Made by a program: the position numbers and the translations under genes. Positions 1,845-44,010 of a stretch of 51,813 nucleotides of DNA are shown here, one piece after another. How positions within the stretch are numbered: position 1 is the first letter of the stretch; every line of letters begins with the position of its first letter. The stretch is from Nevskiaceae bacterium (GTDB lineage Bacteria; Patescibacteriota; Microgenomatia; PFEM01): the NCBI GenBank assembly GCA_035527075.1, contig DATLBE010000039.1, forward strand, positions 1-51,813, in the 5' to 3' direction. Below the pieces are notes generated by a model, which made no database searches, was not told the DNA's origin, and was given only the letters and a program-made list of their open reading frames with translations.

Positions 1845-2609
1845 TTAAATTTTCTCAGCAATAATAATTTTTCGTTTTGAAGTCTTAGGATAATAAGTTT
1901 TTTCTAAAGAATAATCACCGTAAACTTTTAATATTCTAAATCTCGGTCTCAAAAAATTTTTTATCTCTTCAAGTGACCACATTTTCAATTCCTCTCGCTC
2001 TCTAAAAATTACAGGCTTTTTTCCTTTTTCAATTAATTCAGTAACATAAGCATCTCTTCTTAATTTTGCTTCTTTATCATATTGTCTTTTGTAAGAGCTT
2101 TTAATTACTGCCTTTGGCAGTCTGATTATATTTTCACCTTCAATAAGAGGTTTATTTTTAGCTGGATTTTCATAATTTGAGGAATCCAAAACAAAAAGAT
2201 GCTCAGTTATACAATAAATATTCTTAATAAAGGTTTTAATTTTATCCTCCGATAAAATATACCCTATTGTTGTCCACATGCAAATTGAGGCATCAAAAAA
2301 ATTTTTGGGAAATTTGGGATTAGTAAAATCCATTTCTTTAAATTCAACTTTGGGACATTTATTACGGGCAATTTTCAGCATGTCTCCAGCCAGATCAATG
2401 CCGGTAACTTTATAGCCCACCTTGGCTAAAAAACAAGAATGCCGACCAGTGCCACAACCTAAATCCAAAATCTTCAATATTTTGCCACTTTTGTAACTTT
2501 GAAAAACATCATTCAAAAACCTACATTCTTTCTCAGTTGTCAACGGCGCCAGAAAATCATAATAAGGAGCCAATCGCGAATAAAGCGCTCGTTTATCAAG
2601 CCTAATCAT
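1845..2609 (-). CDS. class I SAM-dependent methyltransferase
   Basis: Motif I ILDLGCGTGRHS, followed by acidic GIDLAGDML and MDF motifs. Confidence 0.75.
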   Translation of the reverse strand: MIRLDKRALYSRLAPYYDFLAPLTTEKECRFLNDVFQSYKSGKILKILDLGCGTGRHSCFLAKVGYKVTGIDLAGDMLKIARNKCPKVEFKEMDFTNPKFPKNFFDASICMWTTIGYILSEDKIKTFIKNIYCITEHLFVLDSSNYENPAKNKPLIEGENIIRLPKAVIKSSYKRQYDKEAKLRRDAYVTELIEKGKKPVIFREREELKMWSLEEIKNFLRPRFRILKVYGDYSLEKTYYPKTSKRKIIIAEKI

Positions 2610-2642: not shown

Positions 2643-2762
2643 TTATCGCTTGGGAGACTGTTTTTTGCGTCGGGCTTTGCCGCCGAGGCCGGGTTTGCGG
2701 CGTTCGCGGGCGCGGGGGTCGCGGGTAAGAAGCTTGTATTTTTTTAAAGAGGAATAATACAG
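2643..2762 (-). pseudogene. duplicated 3' fragment of rpsI (last 39 codons plus stop), no 5' part
   Basis: Hand translation in the S9 frame gives LYYSSLKKYKLLTRDPRARERRKPGLGGKARRKKQSPKR*. The intact rpsI tail at 3771-3890 reads LYHAALKKHKLLTRDPRARERRKPGLGGKARRKKQSPKR*. The offset is exactly 1128 nt. Confidence 0.85.
2686..2726. repeat. 41-nt GC-rich identical core of the rpsI-tail duplication (copy 1)
   Basis: AGGCCGGGTTTGCGGCGTTCGCGGGCGCGGGGGTCGCGGGT is identical to 3814-3854. It is 33/41 G+C and contains TCGCGGG twice, 15 nt apart. Confidence 0.85.
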
Positions 2763-3745
2763 AGTATCTTGGGAAGATAGGGTAATTGGTCAAGGCTAAA
2801 AAGGGGCAATTGAATACCGATATCCTGATTAGTATCTCCCTCGGTAGCGCTAAATAATAAAACTTTTTTTTCTTTTTTTAATCCTTCCCATTTTTGCTTG
2901 TATTCTGGGGATAAATAATTTTTCATTTCACTTTCTATTTCAAATACTCTGCGAGGGGAAACAACTGTTTCTTCTGCTATTTTCAATATTTCATTTTCCA
3001 GACCACGATTAAAGTAAGGATAATAGTAAGGATAATCATCACTTTCGAAAGGCACAAACCATTCAGCCGTCGTCTTTATCCGCTCGTATTCTCCCCAATG
3101 CAGTTTCTCTTTATACCACTCCAGCTGAAAAATAATGGCCTCCCAAATTCCTAAATCTTCAACCAGGCGACGAGCCATACTCTCTATGGGAACGTCAAAT
3201 AAATTGGCTAATTTCATTAAGAAATGAGCTCCAAAATTTGGTTCACCTGGTTTGGGAAATTTACTCACTTCTCTTTCTAATAATTCCGATGGTATTAAAA
3301 GCTCGCGGGCAAAGTTATCGCAGAAACGCTCTACTATTATTTGTCTCAAATCTTTGGGGAGATTGGGCCTTAGAAAACCGATAGAGTCTACCCTGTAAAA
3401 AAATGTATGTCCAACCTCGTGAGCGATAGTAAAACGTCTTTCCGCTGAAGAAAGTCCTTCTCTTGATGAGATTATAAAGCCGGCTTTCACTTTTCTACCA
3501 GCTAGTATGTCAGCAGTCGGTATGAGCAACCCCATAGCTGACCCATCGTAGCCAATTTTTTTCACCAACCTTCTAGCTGCAATCGGTTCTGGCTCCACAG
3601 GGAAAACTCCCCACTGCTTTGTCTCCACTAGCAATTCTTTAGCTATTCTTTCTACGCCTTCAATTGGTGATTTTTCCGAAGAAGACCGAAATTCTTCTGG
3701 AAGATAATTAAAGACAGAAGCCAATTGTCTTTCTCGATTAATCAT
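2744..3745 (-). CDS. ImmA/IrrE-family (M78-like) zinc metallopeptidase domain protein with an uncharacterised C-terminal half
   Basis: RRFTIAHEVGHTFFY (HExxH) followed by CDNFARELLIPSELL, the typical ImmA/IrrE arrangement. No Xre-type partner is adjacent. Confidence 0.65.
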   Translation of the reverse strand: MINRERQLASVFNYLPEEFRSSSEKSPIEGVERIAKELLVETKQWGVFPVEPEPIAARRLVKKIGYDGSAMGLLIPTADILAGRKVKAGFIISSREGLSSAERRFTIAHEVGHTFFYRVDSIGFLRPNLPKDLRQIIVERFCDNFARELLIPSELLEREVSKFPKPGEPNFGAHFLMKLANLFDVPIESMARRLVEDLGIWEAIIFQLEWYKEKLHWGEYERIKTTAEWFVPFESDDYPYYYPYFNRGLENEILKIAEETVVSPRRVFEIESEMKNYLSPEYKQKWEGLKKEKKVLLFSATEGDTNQDIGIQLPLFSLDQLPYLPKILCIIPL

Positions 3746-3770
3746 ACTTTAAAGGGCTTGGGTGCAAAAA

Positions 3771-4193
3771 TTAACGTTTCGGGCTTTGCTTTTTTCTTCT
3801 GGCTTTACCACCAAGGCCGGGTTTGCGGCGTTCGCGGGCGCGGGGGTCGCGGGTTAAAAGTTTGTGTTTTTTTAAAGCGGCGTGATAAAGCTCTTTGTTT
3901 TCTTTATCCAAGGCCCGAGCGACTCCGTGAACAACAGCGTCTAATTGGCCTTGTCTGCCTGAGCCAACAACTTTAATGGTAGCGTAAAATTTGCTTAGGG
4001 AATCAGTGACCTGAAAAGGTTTTTGGTATTTGGCTTTGGCAACGTCACTCGGAAAATACTCTTCAATCGGTTGATTATTAACCAAAGTTTTGCCTTTACC
4101 CCGGAAAAGTCTAACTCTAGCAGAGGCTGTCTTTCTTCGACCAACCGCGTAAACGCAAGCTTTTTTTCGGGGCTTAGATTTAGTTTTTGGCAT
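3771..4193 (-). CDS. rpsI: 30S ribosomal protein S9
   Basis: Full-length S9 with the universal C-terminal ...ARRKKQSPKR. Confidence 0.97.
   Translation of the reverse strand: MPKTKSKPRKKACVYAVGRRKTASARVRLFRGKGKTLVNNQPIEEYFPSDVAKAKYQKPFQVTDSLSKFYATIKVVGSGRQGQLDAVVHGVARALDKENKELYHAALKKHKLLTRDPRARERRKPGLGGKARRKKQSPKR
3814..3854. repeat. 41-nt GC-rich identical core of the rpsI-tail duplication (copy 2, inside intact rpsI)
   Basis: Identical to 2686-2726. Confidence 0.85.
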
Positions 4194-4611
4194 CTTTCTT
4201 CCCTAGTTTATTTTTATAAGGGTGTTTTTCATCAACAAAAATTTTTAATCTGGCTAGCCTTGGACTCCTGAGTTTGTTTTTGGGCAACATGCCGGAAACA
4301 GCATGACGGATAATTTTTCTGGGGTCCAAAGCCTGCTGTTGAGCGAAAGTAATTTCTTTAAACCCACCAGGATAGCCTGAATGGCGATAATACATTTTTT
4401 GGGCTCTTTTTTTGCCAGTCACTTTGACTTTGGCGACGTTAGTCACCACCACATAATCACCACAATCAAGATGGGAAGTATAATAGGGCTTGCTTTTGCC
4501 CATCAAAAGTAAAGCAATCCGGGAAGACAGACGCCCCAAAATTTTATCTTGGGCGTTAATAAGATGCCAACTTTTTTTGATTTCACTTTTTTTGGTTGCT
4601 TTTGTTTTCAT
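4180..4611 (-). CDS. rplM: 50S ribosomal protein L13
   Basis: MKTKATKKSEIKKSWHLINA aligns with the canonical L13 N-terminus ([20 protein letters not shown]), so the start is at Met13 of the ORF. It overlaps the rplQ end by about 29 nt. Confidence 0.93.
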   Translation of the reverse strand: MKTKATKKSEIKKSWHLINAQDKILGRLSSRIALLLMGKSKPYYTSHLDCGDYVVVTNVAKVKVTGKKRAQKMYYRHSGYPGGFKEITFAQQQALDPRKIIRHAVSGMLPKNKLRSPRLARLKIFVDEKHPYKNKLGKKDAKN

Positions 4612-4993
4612 CTTTGTCTTTTTTGCCCACCTCTTTTGGTTTCTCAACCAATTCGAGTCTCACCATCATCGCGTCATCACCTCGTCTTTTACCCAGACGG
4701 ATGATTCTGGTAAACCCACCTGGCCTTTTTTTAAAAAGAGGCGCCAACTCATCCGCAATCTTGCTAACCGCTTTCTTATTCTGTAAAAAGGCGGCGATTA
4801 GTCTTCTTGAATGAAGCGTACTAGTTTTTCCTTTAGTAATTAACTTATCCACCAAGCCGCGAATAGCTTTTGCCTTACTCTCAGTAGTTTTTATCTGGCC
4901 ATGAATCACCAAACTATTAATCAAGTTTTTAAACAGAGCCTTACGCTGAGCTCTACCCCGAGAAAGTTTTTTGCCTGAAACCCGATGCTTCAT
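4583..4993 (-). CDS. rplQ: 50S ribosomal protein L17
   Basis: L17 family sequence with a Lys-rich C-terminal tail, located after rpoA. Confidence 0.95.
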   Translation of the reverse strand: MKHRVSGKKLSRGRAQRKALFKNLINSLVIHGQIKTTESKAKAIRGLVDKLITKGKTSTLHSRRLIAAFLQNKKAVSKIADELAPLFKKRPGGFTRIIRLGKRRGDDAMMVRLELVEKPKEVGKKDKDENKSNQKK

Positions 4994-4995
4994 TT

Positions 4996-5916
4996 TTAAC
5001 CCTTCTCTTGCAACTCGATGCCTTTTTTAGCCAAGACAACCCCAATAATTTTAATTGATTTTTCACCTAAATTTTTAACTTTGGCCAAATCAGCCGGGTG
5101 AGCCGCACTCAAATCACTGACCGTCCCATAACCTCCCTTACGAAGGGCATTAACGATTCTTGTCGGCAACTCAATTTCCTCAACCGTTAGTTTCATTGCT
5201 TCGCTAGAAATAGTTTTCACCTTTTCCTTTTTTACCTTCAGCTTTTTGGGCTCAACTATTTGATTAAAAAAGGCCACTAAAGTTTTAGCTGCTTTTTTCA
5301 AAGCTTGACTGGGTTTAATCGTACCGTCAGTGGTAATTTCCAAAATCAGTCGGTCTAAATTAGCCCTTCCACCCACCCGGGTGGCTTCGACGCGATAATT
5401 AACCCTTTTTATTGGGCCAAAAGCCGCATCAACCAAAATGACGCCAATTTTTTCTGTCTTTCTTTCTTCAGCCGGCAGATAGCCAACCCCAGTTTCAACC
5501 TGGAATTCTACTTTTAATTTAGCTTTTCTGTCAGCTAAATTAGCCAAAACTTGATCTTTATTGACAATTTCTACCTGAGCTGGAGTTTTAATATCACCAG
5601 CTTTAACTTCACCCGGGCCGCTCTTTTCTAATCTTAATCTAATCGCTTTTTCCCCTTCATATCTAACTCTAATTTGCTTAATGTTTAAGATGAGTTCAAT
5701 AATATCCTCTTTTAACCCCGCCAGAGTAGAAAATTTATGTCTCACGCCACTAACCTTAACCTGGGTGATGGCGGCACCTGGCAAACTGGTCAAAAGAACA
5801 CGGCGAAGAGCATTACCTAAAGTATCACCATAACCCTGCTCTAAAGGCTCAATGATAAATTGGCCGAAATCATTGGTTTCTTTCTCTTTTTTAACTTGAA
5901 AACTGGGAACAATCAT
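4996..5916 (-). CDS. rpoA: DNA-directed RNA polymerase subunit alpha
   Basis: N-terminal domain ...GYGDTLGNALRRVLLTSLPG plus a C-terminal HhH domain. Conserved position between rpsD and rplQ. Confidence 0.96.
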   Translation of the reverse strand: MIVPSFQVKKEKETNDFGQFIIEPLEQGYGDTLGNALRRVLLTSLPGAAITQVKVSGVRHKFSTLAGLKEDIIELILNIKQIRVRYEGEKAIRLRLEKSGPGEVKAGDIKTPAQVEIVNKDQVLANLADRKAKLKVEFQVETGVGYLPAEERKTEKIGVILVDAAFGPIKRVNYRVEATRVGGRANLDRLILEITTDGTIKPSQALKKAAKTLVAFFNQIVEPKKLKVKKEKVKTISSEAMKLTVEEIELPTRIVNALRKGGYGTVSDLSAAHPADLAKVKNLGEKSIKIIGVVLAKKGIELQEKG

Positions 5917-18338: not shown

Positions 18339-18367
18339 ATTATATAACATTAGCCACGAAGATGCAA
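18339..18367 (-). promoter_or_regulatory. sigma70-like promoter facing rplC
   Basis: Minus strand reads TTGCAT (18367-18362), a 17-nt spacer, then TATAAT (18344-18339). It lies immediately downstream of the rpsJ tail fragment. Confidence 0.4.
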
Positions 18368-18375
18368 GAAGAAAA

Positions 18376-18432
18376 TTACATTTTTATTTCTATATCAACG
18401 CCTGCCGGAAGGTCAAGGTGCACGAGAGAGTC
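18376..18432 (-). pseudogene. duplicated 3' fragment of rpsJ (last 18 codons plus stop)
   Basis: Translates to [18 protein letters not shown] versus [18 protein letters not shown] in intact rpsJ (19288-19344). The offset is 912 nt and 51/57 nt are identical by hand alignment. Of the 5 sense-codon differences, 4 are synonymous. Confidence 0.85.
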
Positions 18433-18435
18433 ATA

Positions 18436-18444
18436 TGATAAAAT
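18436..18444 (+). promoter_or_regulatory. extended -10 element (TGaTAAAAT) upstream of the nucleotidyltransferase gene
   Basis: TGATAAAAT lies about 28 nt upstream of the ATG at 18473. There is no convincing -35. Confidence 0.3.
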
Positions 18445-18472
18445 AATCATAGAAGCGGGAAAATTGGGCAGT

Positions 18473-19285
18473 ATGACTAATCCTAAAATCATCATTTCCA
18501 GGTTAAAAAAAGAATTAGAAAAAAACCCCCTTGTAGTTGGGCTAGTTTTAGTGGGCTCACAAATAAGAAAGACCATTTACATTGCCAACTCTTATTCGGA
18601 CATGGAAGTTTATATCATTGTCAAGGACGGCAATGAGGAAAAAATTGAGAAACAATTACCTAGTTTAGTGAATAAATTAGGTAAAGTGATTTTTTCTTAT
18701 AAAAATCAATGGGCGGGTTTTTCGACAGTTTTCGAAAATTTATTTAGGTTAGAACTACCAATCGTTAAACTTTCTGAGATAAATTCGGTTTTTTCTCGAC
18801 CAACCACTCAACCCGTTAAGGCTCTTATCGACAAAACTAATGGCCGACTGGATAAAGCCTTGACATCTCGCCCTAAAACTCTGAATTTCCAAAAATTGTT
18901 CCAAGATAAAGTAGTTGATTTCTGGTATATGGCTATTGTGGCTATCCAATATTATAAAAAGGATGAAGTCTATAATGCCCGCAAAGCACTTCATTTAATT
19001 CAATCTTCGCTCATTAAATTCTTTGAACTTTTAAATGACCCCAAAATATTACTCCTAGAAACAAACAAAATGATTGAACAATTCTTATCTCCACCACAAA
19101 TTAAACTACTTAAAGAAATAAGCCCTTCTTATGAGAAAAGCCAAATAAAACAAGCGCTGATTGGAACGATAAATATTTTTTCCGATGTGACAAAAGAAAT
19201 ATCAAAGAAACACAATTATAACTACCGCAGAGAAATCGAAAAAAAGATAAAGTCAAAACTTTTAAGACATTTGGCTGAGAATTGA
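18473..19285 (+). CDS. nucleotidyltransferase, ANT(6)/AadK-like (aminoglycoside 6-adenylyltransferase family fold)
   Basis: From Met38 of the ORF: VVGLVLVGSQ...SDMEVYIIV (GS...DxE), RLELPIV (third acidic residue), VKALIDK, and FWYMAIVAIQYY...ALHLIQSSLIKF. By recall these align with AadK motifs LEGSR...DYDISYFV, LDLTLIP, VKVLLDK and FWMVSTYVVKG. The first 37 ORF codons are antisense to the rpsJ fragment and are probably not translated. Confidence 0.6.
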   Translation: MTNPKIIISRLKKELEKNPLVVGLVLVGSQIRKTIYIANSYSDMEVYIIVKDGNEEKIEKQLPSLVNKLGKVIFSYKNQWAGFSTVFENLFRLELPIVKLSEINSVFSRPTTQPVKALIDKTNGRLDKALTSRPKTLNFQKLFQDKVVDFWYMAIVAIQYYKKDEVYNARKALHLIQSSLIKFFELLNDPKILLLETNKMIEQFLSPPQIKLLKEISPSYEKSQIKQALIGTINIFSDVTKEISKKHNYNYRREIEKKIKSKLLRHLAEN

Positions 19286-42495: not shown

Positions 42496-43136
42496 AAAAT
42501 TTTAAGTTGTTCTTGTTGACTCTCTTGTTTTTTTTCCTTAACTGTTTCTTCAACTGGCTCTAATTCATCTTCCAAAAATTTGGAAATCTTCTGAAAATCC
42601 TTTTTTAATTCTGTCATTATTCTACCATTTCTTAAACCAGCAGCTGGGTGATACATGGGTATAACAATAAAACGCTTACCGTTAAAATCGACAAATCTTC
42701 CCTGACCATGAACTTGAGAAATGTATTCACCTGGTAAAAATTTATTCATCGAAAATCTGCCTAAAGTGACAATAATTTTGGGATCGACAATTTCAATTTC
42801 TTTGTCCAAATAGGGTCTAAACGCCTCTATTTCCTCAGCCAGTGGGTCACGATTCTCTGGGGGTCTTGCTTTCACTACGTTACTTATATAAACCTCATTG
42901 CGCTTTAAACCAACCGACTTTATCAGTTGGTCAAGCAATTTTCCAGCGTTCCCCACAAATGGACGACGGAGTTTTGCCTCCCAGTACCCACCCGCTTCTC
43001 CTATGAACATAATTTTTGCGTTATACTTCCCCTCACCGAAAATTACATCTGTCGGTTTCTTAATCAAAGGCAATCTACCTGCTTTTGATTCCAACTCTTT
43101 TTTAAGTTCTTCCAGCTGCCTTTTTTTATCGGTCAT
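42492..43136 (-). CDS. uracil-DNA glycosylase superfamily protein (family 4-like, cysteine-free)
   Basis: GEGKYNAKIMFIGEAGGYWE...PFVGNAGKLLD...HPAAGLRN. There are no Cys residues at all. Confidence 0.8.
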   Translation of the reverse strand: MTDKKRQLEELKKELESKAGRLPLIKKPTDVIFGEGKYNAKIMFIGEAGGYWEAKLRRPFVGNAGKLLDQLIKSVGLKRNEVYISNVVKARPPENRDPLAEEIEAFRPYLDKEIEIVDPKIIVTLGRFSMNKFLPGEYISQVHGQGRFVDFNGKRFIVIPMYHPAAGLRNGRIMTELKKDFQKISKFLEDELEPVEETVKEKKQESQQEQLKIL

Positions 43137-44010
43137 TAATTACTCCCCTTCTTCTAATCTCTGTAAATGGTGGTCTTACCTTTGTTTTAATCAGCCAGCG
43201 ATATATAGAAGAATGGTGTACGCCTAACTTATCTGCTATTTGTGGACCATTATAGCCTGCCCTCCAAAACTTAGTAAGTATCCTGTTCATTGATTCTTGA
43301 AACTCTCTTTCTATCTTCCGCCATTTTCTTCCCCCAGATTTTACCCATTCATATAACTCTTTGGCTTTTTTACACTGCTTGTATTTTCTCTCCATGAATA
43401 AATCGTTGTTTTCAAGATTGCCATAAAGAAAAGTCAAAACCCTGTAAGCATTCTCCCAAAAGTAATCTACTTGATAGCTAATAGAACTAATTCCCTTTCC
43501 CGTTATTTTGCTTTTCGTTCGAAGATTATTAGTTGTAAAATCAAGAGTCTTAGTTATTTTGTTGCTAAGCTGGGAGAGGAATTTCTCGCTGCCGCTTGAA
43601 AAACCAACAGAAATCTCGTTTCTGCTCTCACGAATATAAATCCAACCATCGCCGTCGAAAAAACCACGAGCAAAATGAGAAAATAACTGCGGAGGAACCA
43701 TGGGGAGTTGAATCGAACTACTTTTATTAGGATAAACTCCCAAATTCTGAAGATCATTAACAACTACCGGATTTGAAATTCTCAATCTAAATGAAGCTTT
43801 GCGCTTGTGAATCGGATAATTCGAACCCATTGTTTGGTTAATCCTCTCGAGCAATTCTCTATCTTGTTTTAAATCCCAAGCTAAAACAGTTTTATAAACA
43901 TTACCATCTGCAAAAGTAAATCCCAAAATATACGCCATCTGCGGTATCCATCTTTTAAAGAAATCGATATTAACTCTGTAATCAAATCTATTCCAATTTA
44001 TACTATTCAT
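43126..44010 (-). CDS. double-motif LAGLIDADG homing endonuclease with a C-terminal HTH domain, free-standing
   Basis: YILGFTFADGNV and FARGFFDGDGWI are two LAGLIDADG motifs. The C-terminal GYNGPQIADKLGVHHSSIYRWL is HTH-like. Confidence 0.8.
   Translation of the reverse strand: MNSINWNRFDYRVNIDFFKRWIPQMAYILGFTFADGNVYKTVLAWDLKQDRELLERINQTMGSNYPIHKRKASFRLRISNPVVVNDLQNLGVYPNKSSSIQLPMVPPQLFSHFARGFFDGDGWIYIRESRNEISVGFSSGSEKFLSQLSNKITKTLDFTTNNLRTKSKITGKGISSISYQVDYFWENAYRVLTFLYGNLENNDLFMERKYKQCKKAKELYEWVKSGGRKWRKIEREFQESMNRILTKFWRAGYNGPQIADKLGVHHSSIYRWLIKTKVRPPFTEIRRRGVINDR

Follow-up and report, generated by a model that had tools for sequence, protein, structure and literature searches.

A probable replacement-tail insertion carrying one protease gene at the 3′ end of rpsI in a Microgenomates bacterium

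We analysed a stretch of 51,813 nt (hereafter the window; contig DATLBE010000039.1 of assembly GCA_035527075.1) covering the ribosomal-protein/rpoA/rpoBC region of a Microgenomates bacterium of the Candidate Phyla Radiation (CPR), in which a gene for a predicted zinc metalloprotease stands directly behind rpsI, the gene for ribosomal protein S9, and is bracketed by two direct copies of the rpsI 3′ end. The ribosomal-protein cluster ends with rpsI, whose nearest counterpart among the GTDB species representatives (Shapirobacteria and Woesebacteria metagenome-assembled genomes) is 64% identical. Every feature listed for this locus lies on the minus strand of the window, and its genes and tails are arranged as follows:

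4193..3771 (minus strand): intact rpsI, encoding ribosomal protein S9 of 140 aa (list of open reading frames, ORFs; Pfam PF00380, E 5.9e-35)
3770..3746 (minus strand): spacer of 25 nt, read from the sequence, without counterpart in the empty-site allele L099 described below
3745..2744 (minus strand): cargo gene of 333 aa, predicted ImmA/IrrE-type zinc metalloprotease with the motif HEVGH (PF06114 Peptidase_M78)
2762..2643 (minus strand): second S9 tail, the last 39 codons and the stop of rpsI, from alignment to the intact tail
1845..2609 (minus strand): S-adenosylmethionine (SAM)-dependent methyltransferase gene (Pfam Methyltransf_25), in a variable island between rpsI and a HhH-GPD gene, without counterpart in L099

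The two S9 tails are offset by exactly 1128 nt and were returned by the repeat finder as a single repeat family. Over their 120 nt they agree at 97 positions (81%) and at 35 of 39 amino acids, the stop also matches, and outside these 120 nt the identity drops to background at once. The layout, coordinates, offset and identity counts given in a first-pass annotation of this DNA all hold against the ORF list, the alignment and the repeat finder, and its comparison of the two tails, once run as an alignment, gave frame-preserving similarity with 14 synonymous and 4 non-synonymous codon differences, including a serine written AGC in one tail and TCT in the other.

The same junctions were found on five other contigs (L001, L174, L175, L176 and L177, from JGI, ENA and Logan) at 99.6–100% nucleotide identity, all of them showing the order rpsI, protease, tail copy, methyltransferase. 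Four contigs encode the exact 333-aa protein (ENA ERZ27256834, of 30.5 kb; JGI 3300031539; ENA ERZ27256827; Logan SRR8554511), and the fifth (JGI 3300031566) encodes a 98% variant with an 18-nt in-frame deletion. The first-pass annotation had worried about an assembly artefact, that is, two strains joined at the conserved tail, and a 41-nt stretch identical in both repeats is indeed able to break or mis-join short-read assemblies; moreover, both ends of the Logan unitig L177 fall inside the repeat. Against this, the five contigs come from different assemblers and samples and cross both junctions, the 30.5-kb ENA contig among them, and divergent versions of the layout occur in three other genomes, which leaves a chimera with next to no chance. 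We also considered L177 as an excised circle, its 1141 nt minus a 13-nt terminal overlap giving 1128 nt, and rejected it because its ends are the breaks expected of k=31 unitigs at the repeated core. An 18-nt in-frame indel at window 3443–3460 (minus strand; six residues, around EGLSSA) separates the window protease from that of the otherwise identical L001 and is strain-level variation inside the cargo gene.

An empty-site allele (L099, Ga0307380_10130052) comes from the same metagenome as one of the filled contigs (L175, Ga0307380_10037792), so that presence and absence of the insert are polymorphic inside one metagenome. L099 is 98.4% identical to the window across 1816 nt of the HhH-GPD and exonuclease flank, and 98–100% identical in rpsI until ~70 nt before the stop; it has neither the protease gene, nor the second tail, nor the methyltransferase gene, and its homology to the window restarts at window 1816. 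We compared L099 at the 23 sites where the two repeats of the window differ. In repeat positions 3–36 it agrees with the intact copy at 9/9 sites, with two private changes in this 5′ arm (at positions 18 and 24); in positions 78–96 it agrees with the downstream copy at 6/6 sites; over the last eight informative sites it is mixed, four being intact-like and four copy-like, and the serine codon TCT is common to L099 and the copy. Since L099 switches from intact-like to copy-like across the 41-nt core, both repeats are chimeric around that core. L099 shows which parts are resident, namely copy 1's 5′ arm and the 3′ part of copy 2, and which came with the insert, namely the last 43 nt of the working rpsI, the spacer, the protease gene and copy 2's 5′ arm; the downstream copy is the displaced resident tail. 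The parts of the repeats are as follows:

3855..3890 (minus strand): 5′ arm of repeat copy 1 (repeat positions 1–36, LYHAALKKHKLL), resident host sequence, in agreement with L099 at 9/9 sites
3814..3854 (minus strand): core of repeat copy 1, 41 nt identical in both copies (ACCCGCGACCCCCGCGCCCGCGAACGCCGCAAACCCGGCCT; repeat positions 37–77), the interval of the crossover, from the copy alignment and the L099 switch point
3771..3813 (minus strand): imported replacement tail, the last 13 S9 codons and stop (GGKARRKKQSPKR and the stop), serine AGC; 11/43 nt differ from L099, all synonymous
2727..2762 (minus strand): 5′ arm of repeat copy 2 (LYYSSLKKYKLL in the S9 frame), with 9 sites that differ from both the intact copy and L099
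2749..2739 (minus strand): possible 11-nt microhomology junction CTTTAAAAAAA, common to the protease stop region and the S9 Ala-Leu-Lys-Lys codons
2686..2726 (minus strand): core of repeat copy 2, the same 41 nt, from the copy alignment
2643..2685 (minus strand): displaced resident S9 tail, 13 codons and stop, serine TCT, a non-translated relic; L099-like at 10/14 informative sites

The window and L099 diverge chiefly in the final 43 nt of rpsI (11/43 nt versus ~1.5% in the flanks), and in the nearest other species (L085, 81% S9 identity) the tail has 7 differences from the copy versus 12 from the intact tail, by hand count. The first-pass annotation had held it probable that one tail came with foreign DNA: the foreign origin stands in the light of L099, but what was imported are the final 43 nt of the intact gene and not a whole tail. 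The comparison of the region downstream of rpsI in relatives, which it had also suggested, turned up both this empty site and other cargo (see below). Note that L099 278–719 holds a small PNPOx-like ORF where the window has the SAM methyltransferase gene (1845–2609, minus strand); within the same species, different genes stand between rpsI and the HhH-GPD gene, and no repeat marks this swap.

The spelling of the tails was compared with simulations of 200,000 random-substitution trials per tail pair. In the window, the segment 3′ of the core holds 13 nt differences that amount to 10 synonymous and 0 non-synonymous codons (P<5e-6), and the 5′ arm holds 9 nt differences in 3 synonymous and 4 non-synonymous codons (P=0.09); the tails of L004 differ at 13 nt (11 synonymous and 1 non-synonymous codons, P<5e-6), and the intact and third tails of L077 at 17 nt (15 and 0, P<5e-6). 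For the whole window repeat, so few amino-acid changes appeared in 0/200,000 random trials, and the stop codon is retained in the tail copy. All four non-synonymous differences of the window repeats lie in the 5′ arm, where the synonymous bias is not significant, as would be expected if this arm is never read as S9. The purely synonymous divergence 3′ of the core therefore indicates that both 3′ tails evolved as working S9 ends in separate lineages, in agreement with the earlier claim that the tails diverged while both encoded S9. If the rpsI 3′ end had been duplicated locally and in tandem, through slippage or unequal crossing-over, with later insertion of a gene and decay of the copy, direct repeats of one orientation would likewise be left, and at other loci the ~115-nt units superficially resemble tandem duplications. 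However, decay predicts mostly non-synonymous and frame-breaking changes, whereas 3′ of the core every one of the 13 nt differences is synonymous and the stop codon survives; the departure from the empty-site allele is in the functional tail and not in the copy; and the tails of arrays at other loci are each spelled differently (serine AGT, TCC, AGC; stop TAA, TGA). Like the first-pass annotation, which had set a slippage duplication aside, we consider this explanation very unlikely.

A second tail might also have been retained because it is functional, either translated after a frameshift that fuses it to the protease or acting as an RNA or regulatory element for the methyltransferase gene. 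Indeed, over 39 codons the copy keeps an intact S9 frame, which overlaps the protease ORF's end, and elsewhere S9 tail codons pair with post-stop sequence in a hairpin with compensatory changes. Yet this frame contains no ATG, GTG or TTG start and is open for just 48 codons; in L004, L003 and L002 the copy is shorter, with stops and filler between it and the protease ORF; the window copy lacks the complementary 3′ strand of the hairpin; and the empty allele is without both the copy and the methyltransferase gene. We regard a functional tail as highly improbable, and the frameshift fusion in particular was ruled out by the missing start codon and by the stops and filler in relatives.

The protease gene has moved between divergent hosts, always to the rpsI end. 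A search of 5.8 billion proteins returned only four homologues, 4/4 of them directly after rpsI; rpsI-adjacent homologues occur in L002, L003 and L004 and also, in the case of the P0005 homologue described below, in L165/L166. In the four protease cassettes, the S9-tail remnant after the protease spans 39, 21, 9 or ~5 codons, and the working tail has an AGY serine and the displaced tail a TCN serine in 4/4. Between L002 and L004, the protease genes are 86% identical in nucleotides and 81% in amino acids, as against 68% and 66% for the adjacent rpsI genes. S9 normally evolves more slowly than an accessory gene, and this excess likeness of the protease therefore means that the gene was transferred horizontally into one and the same site of different hosts. 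Behind the displaced tail of L004 begins a sequence, identified by eye as a minus-strand tRNA gene, that is also found 3′ of the intact rpsI in L006, hence the displaced tail is contiguous with host DNA. The next-best homologue, P0005, obtained in a separate profile search, also lies after rpsI, with an 11-nt spacer and no tail copy, and this protease was found in 0/160 other Microgenomates rpsI loci. Remoter homologues (P0006, P0007 and P0008) are not beside rpsI and show no duplicated end of the upstream gene; the tail duplication is thus not a trait of the whole protein family. Just downstream of P0005, L165 carries a gene with the homing-endonuclease-associated HNH_repeat (4481–5098, minus strand), a minus-strand tRNA gene (by eye) lying between the two.

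As judged from its sequence and predicted fold, the cargo protein is assigned to the IrrE/ImmA/CapP-type metalloproteases. It carries HEVGH and matches PF06114 Peptidase_M78 at 38.1 bits (gathering cut-off 22), with motif columns invariant in an alignment of five homologues. The AlphaFold model is confident for residues 1–200, and the C-terminal ~130 residues have a predicted local distance difference score (pLDDT) below 50. The best Foldseek matches are IrrE (3dte), CapP (7t5t) and PprI (8slm), with E-values of 1e-4 to 3e-4 and a probability of 1.00 over ~180 residues, although the TM scores are just 0.31–0.42, the C-terminal third being unmodelled; the structure check suggested in the first-pass annotation thus places residues 1–200 close to these three proteins. 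IrrE/PprI, ImmA and CapP share with the cargo protease the HEXXH motif, PF06114 and an N-terminal part of 200 residues that models alike, but they act with an adjacent helix-turn-helix (HTH) repressor (DdrO, ImmR and CapH, respectively), whereas no such partner stands in or beside the cassette. Indeed, the ORF list and Pfam gave no HTH ORF in the island, and the neighbours of the protease gene are rpsI and the methyltransferase gene. The protease is cargo and not a mobility enzyme; its probable action, if IrrE, CapP and ImmA are a guide, is to cleave a repressor upon a stress signal. No terminator was found between rpsI and the protease gene in a terminator and promoter scan that gave only weak promoter-like matches and was not informative, and expression by read-through is therefore likely.

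The 5′ arm of copy 2 overlaps the last 6 codons and the stop of the protease gene, the overlap with the protease C-terminus covering the first ~13–19 nt of the repeat. The first-pass annotation had taken the last ~6 protease codons to be read from S9 DNA. The repeat does overlap the protease end, but the C-terminal motif [IV]-C/G-[VI]-[IV]-P-L is kept in homologues without S9 copy (P0005 and P0007), which makes an origin of these codons in S9 DNA doubtful. The S9-derived part may begin only at ~2749, at the shared CTTTAAAAAAA, in which case the overlap would be a microhomology junction.

We then consider the rpsI 3′ end on a wider scale, from a survey of 162 rpsI loci (L001–L164 and the window), 140 of them distinct at 97% nucleotide identity. 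Extra S9 tails occur at 14/140 distinct Microgenomates loci, all downstream of rpsI and on the same strand, and none was found upstream or on the opposite strand among the 162 loci. Other cargo recurrently uses this site: L059 carries a Trp-repressor-like gene, and L077 has, in order, a 474-aa ORF, a short tail, a YfiH-like gene and a tRNA gene, a 33-codon tail, a hairpin unit and another tail. The layout thus recurs around related and unrelated cargo and, together with L099 and the synonymous divergence, agrees with the architecture proposed in the first-pass annotation, namely a replacement tail at a gene 3′ end as in e14 and phage 21. Overall, we hold it very probable that the window contains such an insertion and that the working rpsI ends in a foreign tail.

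Many Microgenomates also carry behind rpsI, sometimes in tandem, units of ~115 nt made of the last 11 S9 codons and two hairpins. They were located at L011 4370–4762, L058 4448–4604, L077 7173–7447 and L164 4346–4733, and also occur in L017, L122, L125, L127, L151 and L162; those in L035 and L013 are without tail copy. In the first hairpin the Arg-Arg-Lys codons pair with post-stop sequence, and the second has a GAAYA loop; compensatory changes were seen in 11/19 predicted pairs. The units each have a different synonymous spelling of the S9 codons and one common junction, GGGG followed by CAAGACGC. No Rfam match was obtained for the unit (L011 4300–4850, E<=1), and a covariance model built from it matches rpsI 3′ ends only. 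The same model matches window 3803..3746, that is, the imported tail plus spacer (model positions 4–63, 34.9 bits, E 1.7e-6), which suggests that the spacer derives from the 3′ region of a foreign rpsI. At gathering thresholds, Rfam gave a tRNA in L077 as the only match in the window and seven related loci, and a tRNA scan of the window found none.

The S9 C-terminus (GKARRKKQSPKR and the stop) is nearly invariant, and its serine codon is TCN in 120 and AGY in 42 of the 162 loci. The switch between AGY and TCN is seen even among close relatives; it needs at least two substitutions and therefore may mark past tail replacements. Moreover, L002 (129–999) and L110 are 95–100% identical in long tracts of rpsI, as against ~72% in the adjacent L13 genes, a mosaic that indicates, as far as these sequences tell, recent recombination confined to rpsI. 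It should be noticed that genes for IS200-like Y1 (HUH) transposases lie within a few hundred nucleotides 3′ of rpsI in L086 (1206–1877, minus strand) and L052 (4672–5310, minus strand), and that a Y1 transposase fragment starting at the HUH motif lies 3′ of rpsI in L005 (4431–4589); their vicinity seems incidental because the IS200-like family makes no long target duplications.

Concerning a recombinase, no such domain was found by Pfam in the 16 scanned non-ribosomal ORFs of the window (>=130 aa), and phmmer with lambda Int, XerD, IntE and PinE gave no match in 1768 ORF segments from all ~165 loci and the window. The earlier statement that the window has no recombinase holds for all tested ORFs and extends to the ~165 related loci. 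Among 118 representative ORFs located 3′ of rpsI at other loci, no integrase appeared among the 25 commonest Pfam families listed, from which a rare integrase could escape. In 2.9 million viral contigs (IMG/VR), two degenerate patterns for the S9-tail mimic had no match, and the protease profile gave one weak relative only. An integron gene cassette was also tried and rejected, in view of the lack of a tyrosine recombinase near rpsI and of a flanking repeat that is S9 coding tail and not an imperfect palindrome; no attC model was run. A self-encoded integrase mechanism is not shown by these data, and a recombinase-free route is at least as likely.

We propose that the locus results from a non-autonomous, horizontally acquired insertion at the rpsI 3′ end of this Microgenomates bacterium. 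The incoming DNA would have brought its own S9 tail (serine AGC), a short foreign piece of rpsI 3′ untranslated region and one cargo gene; a crossover within the S9-tail homology would have joined the resident rpsI body to the imported tail, with S9 remaining intact, and the resident tail would have been shifted ~1.1 kb downstream, where it would persist as an untranslated relic. The cassette would encode no recombinase and would rely on host homologous recombination anchored in conserved rpsI sequence, either as a RecA-type crossover in the tail or as homology-facilitated illegitimate recombination with the right join at a short microhomology; the cargo would be read through from the ribosomal-protein operon. 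Several observations fit such homology-anchored recombination. The right-hand tails retained across loci span 39, 33, 21, ~11, 9 and ~5 codons (later deletions could yield the same pattern), and the differing right junctions and unalignable spacers of closely related cassettes, as read from their sequences, would fit it, as do the 11-nt CTTTAAAAAAA at the window's junction, the rpsI mosaicism of L002 and L110 and the nearby RecA and RecX genes, which lie ~4.4 kb from the locus in the same genome. In addition, the methyltransferase is missing together with the cassette in L099, a pattern in keeping with an allele swap that had its anchors in rpsI and the HhH-GPD gene.

The alternative is that the insert descends, as a cis-mobilizable element (CIME) or satellite without integrase, from a site-specific element with the rpsI 3′ end as its target. 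The S9-tail repeats would then be attL and attR, and the cassette would be moved in trans or in cis by a tyrosine or serine recombinase located elsewhere in the genome or in a co-resident element. CIMEs keep attL and attR, have lost integration and transfer genes, and accrete in tandem (PMC5704250), and the insert has att-like repeats and neither a recombinase nor a transfer gene. In favour of this, e14 at icd has the same architecture, tyrosine integrases are documented to target the rpsI 3′ end (PMC5090054; PMC5704250), tandem tails are present in L077, L011 and L164, the ~115-nt units with their common junction and conserved hairpins could be att-only mini-elements, and the same minimal one-gene cassette in several hosts argues for mobilisation of the cassette as such. 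In contrast, no integrase-bearing version was found at the ~165 rpsI loci, in the window or in IMG/VR; the cassette is without conserved non-coding arms, its spacers (11, 13, 25 and ~50 nt) not being alignable; the right junctions of the closely related L002, L003 and L004 cassettes lie at different S9 codons; and L077 has no identical core longer than 14 nt.

Several points weigh against the recombinase-free route. Between rpsI genes of only ~70% identity, homologous recombination is expected to work very poorly, and homology-facilitated illegitimate recombination is reported to be orders of magnitude rarer than ordinary homologous recombination (PMC5361080), a rarity that contrasts with insertions in about 10% of lineages. 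In L077, L011 and L164 the tails stand in tandem arrays that resemble accretion at an att site, as is typical of site-specific integration (PMC5704250), and the ~115-nt hairpin units, with their one constant junction, likewise look site-specific. The recombinase probes were four single sequences with no positive control and may miss divergent CPR enzymes, and a trans-acting recombinase elsewhere in the genome is invisible in 52 kb. Moreover, L099 reveals which parts are foreign and not the insertion in this species, so that the whole island may be an allelic replacement from a relative, and its mixed last eight sites mean that the tail histories are not perfectly clean. On balance, we prefer the recombinase-free route, and with it the full statement including mechanism, as a tentative explanation whose chances stay somewhat below even, over a trans-acting integrase or CIME, which is a serious but less probable candidate; the data do not decide between them.

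Compared with described systems, e14 and phage 21 at icd are alike in their insertion into the 3′ end of an essential gene, their synonymous replacement tail and the displaced tail left as a far-end pseudogene. For the e14 icd tail and icdC, we measured 12 differences over 165 nt (9 synonymous and 2 non-synonymous). In contrast, e14 is ~15 kb long with intE and xisE, whereas the rpsI insert measures 1.1 kb, holds a single cargo gene and lacks a recombinase; repeat identity is 81% here versus 93% in e14, and the crossover lies inside the repeat here and at its 5′ edge in e14. The target, the 3′ end of rpsI, is the same as that of IMESag-rpsI and other streptococcal integrative and conjugative or integrative and mobilizable elements (PMC5090054, PMC5704250), IMESag-rpsI being ~9.5 kb long with a tyrosine recombinase, a relaxase and replication genes (PMC5090054). 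The streptococcal CIMEs match in their lack of a recombinase and in tandem tails (L077), but the host phylum differs (CPR here), the same minimal cassette in several hosts would be unexpected for independent decay products, and no integrase-bearing parent was found. Orphan 3′ modules of Rhs, CDI (contact-dependent growth inhibition) and T6SS (type VI secretion) loci use an upstream homology anchor, displace the ancestral module downstream by homologous or homology-facilitated illegitimate recombination and form arrays with no dedicated recombinase (PMC5361080, PMC3240628). This model matches our variable right junctions, mosaic rpsI and tail arrays, but the displaced pieces there are selected toxin tips with immunity genes, whereas here a 13–39-codon S9 fragment without evident use is left and the anchor is a housekeeping gene. 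Finally, Prochlorococcus tycheposons build variable islands by successive integrations at tRNA genes with partial target copies in a streamlined genome poor in classical mobile elements (bioRxiv 10.1101/2020.12.28.424599); they have tyrosine recombinases, replication modules and tRNA targets, unlike the present protein-coding tail with its synonymous signature and no recombinase seen. The locus is a known architecture in a new form: a replacement-tail insertion of one gene, without integrase, at rpsI in CPR, which belongs to a wider hotspot.

In CPR bacteria, genomes are tiny and recognisable mobile elements few, and their routes of gene gain are poorly understood. In this context, about 10% of the sampled Microgenomates lineages use the end of an essential ribosomal-protein gene as a recurrent site of insertion, and a one-gene insert has moved between hosts without carrying a recombinase; we see the main value of our observations in this recurrent, recombinase-free-looking pattern and in the hairpin units. 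If the homology-anchored route is true, streamlined genomes could gain genes through a conserved coding tail used as a universal address; should a trans-acting integrase be responsible, the S9-tail repeats would be a handle for finding it. A broader and more speculative idea, to which we give a rather low probability, is that Microgenomates possess a recombinase-free cassette system in which genes and ~115-nt units carry a synonymous mimic of the S9 C-terminus as a portable homology arm. Host machinery would then insert cargo downstream of rpsI, where the most highly expressed operon ends, stacked insertions would give integron-like arrays with orphan S9 tails, and the AGY/TCN dimorphism would be the scar of tail replacements. 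On the practical side, orphan tails mark islands for annotation, and the synonymous signature separates imported from resident tails.

Two further genes of the window were observed away from this locus. A 307-aa ORF with a match to streptomycin adenylyltransferase (PF04439) lies at 18362–19285 (plus strand), on the opposite strand within the otherwise co-directional ribosomal-protein cluster. A free-standing 294-aa ORF at 43126–44010 (minus strand) has LAGLIDADG_3 and HTH_23 matches and is homing-endonuclease-like, with a uracil-DNA glycosylase gene on one side and an AAA/Lon-lid gene on the other.

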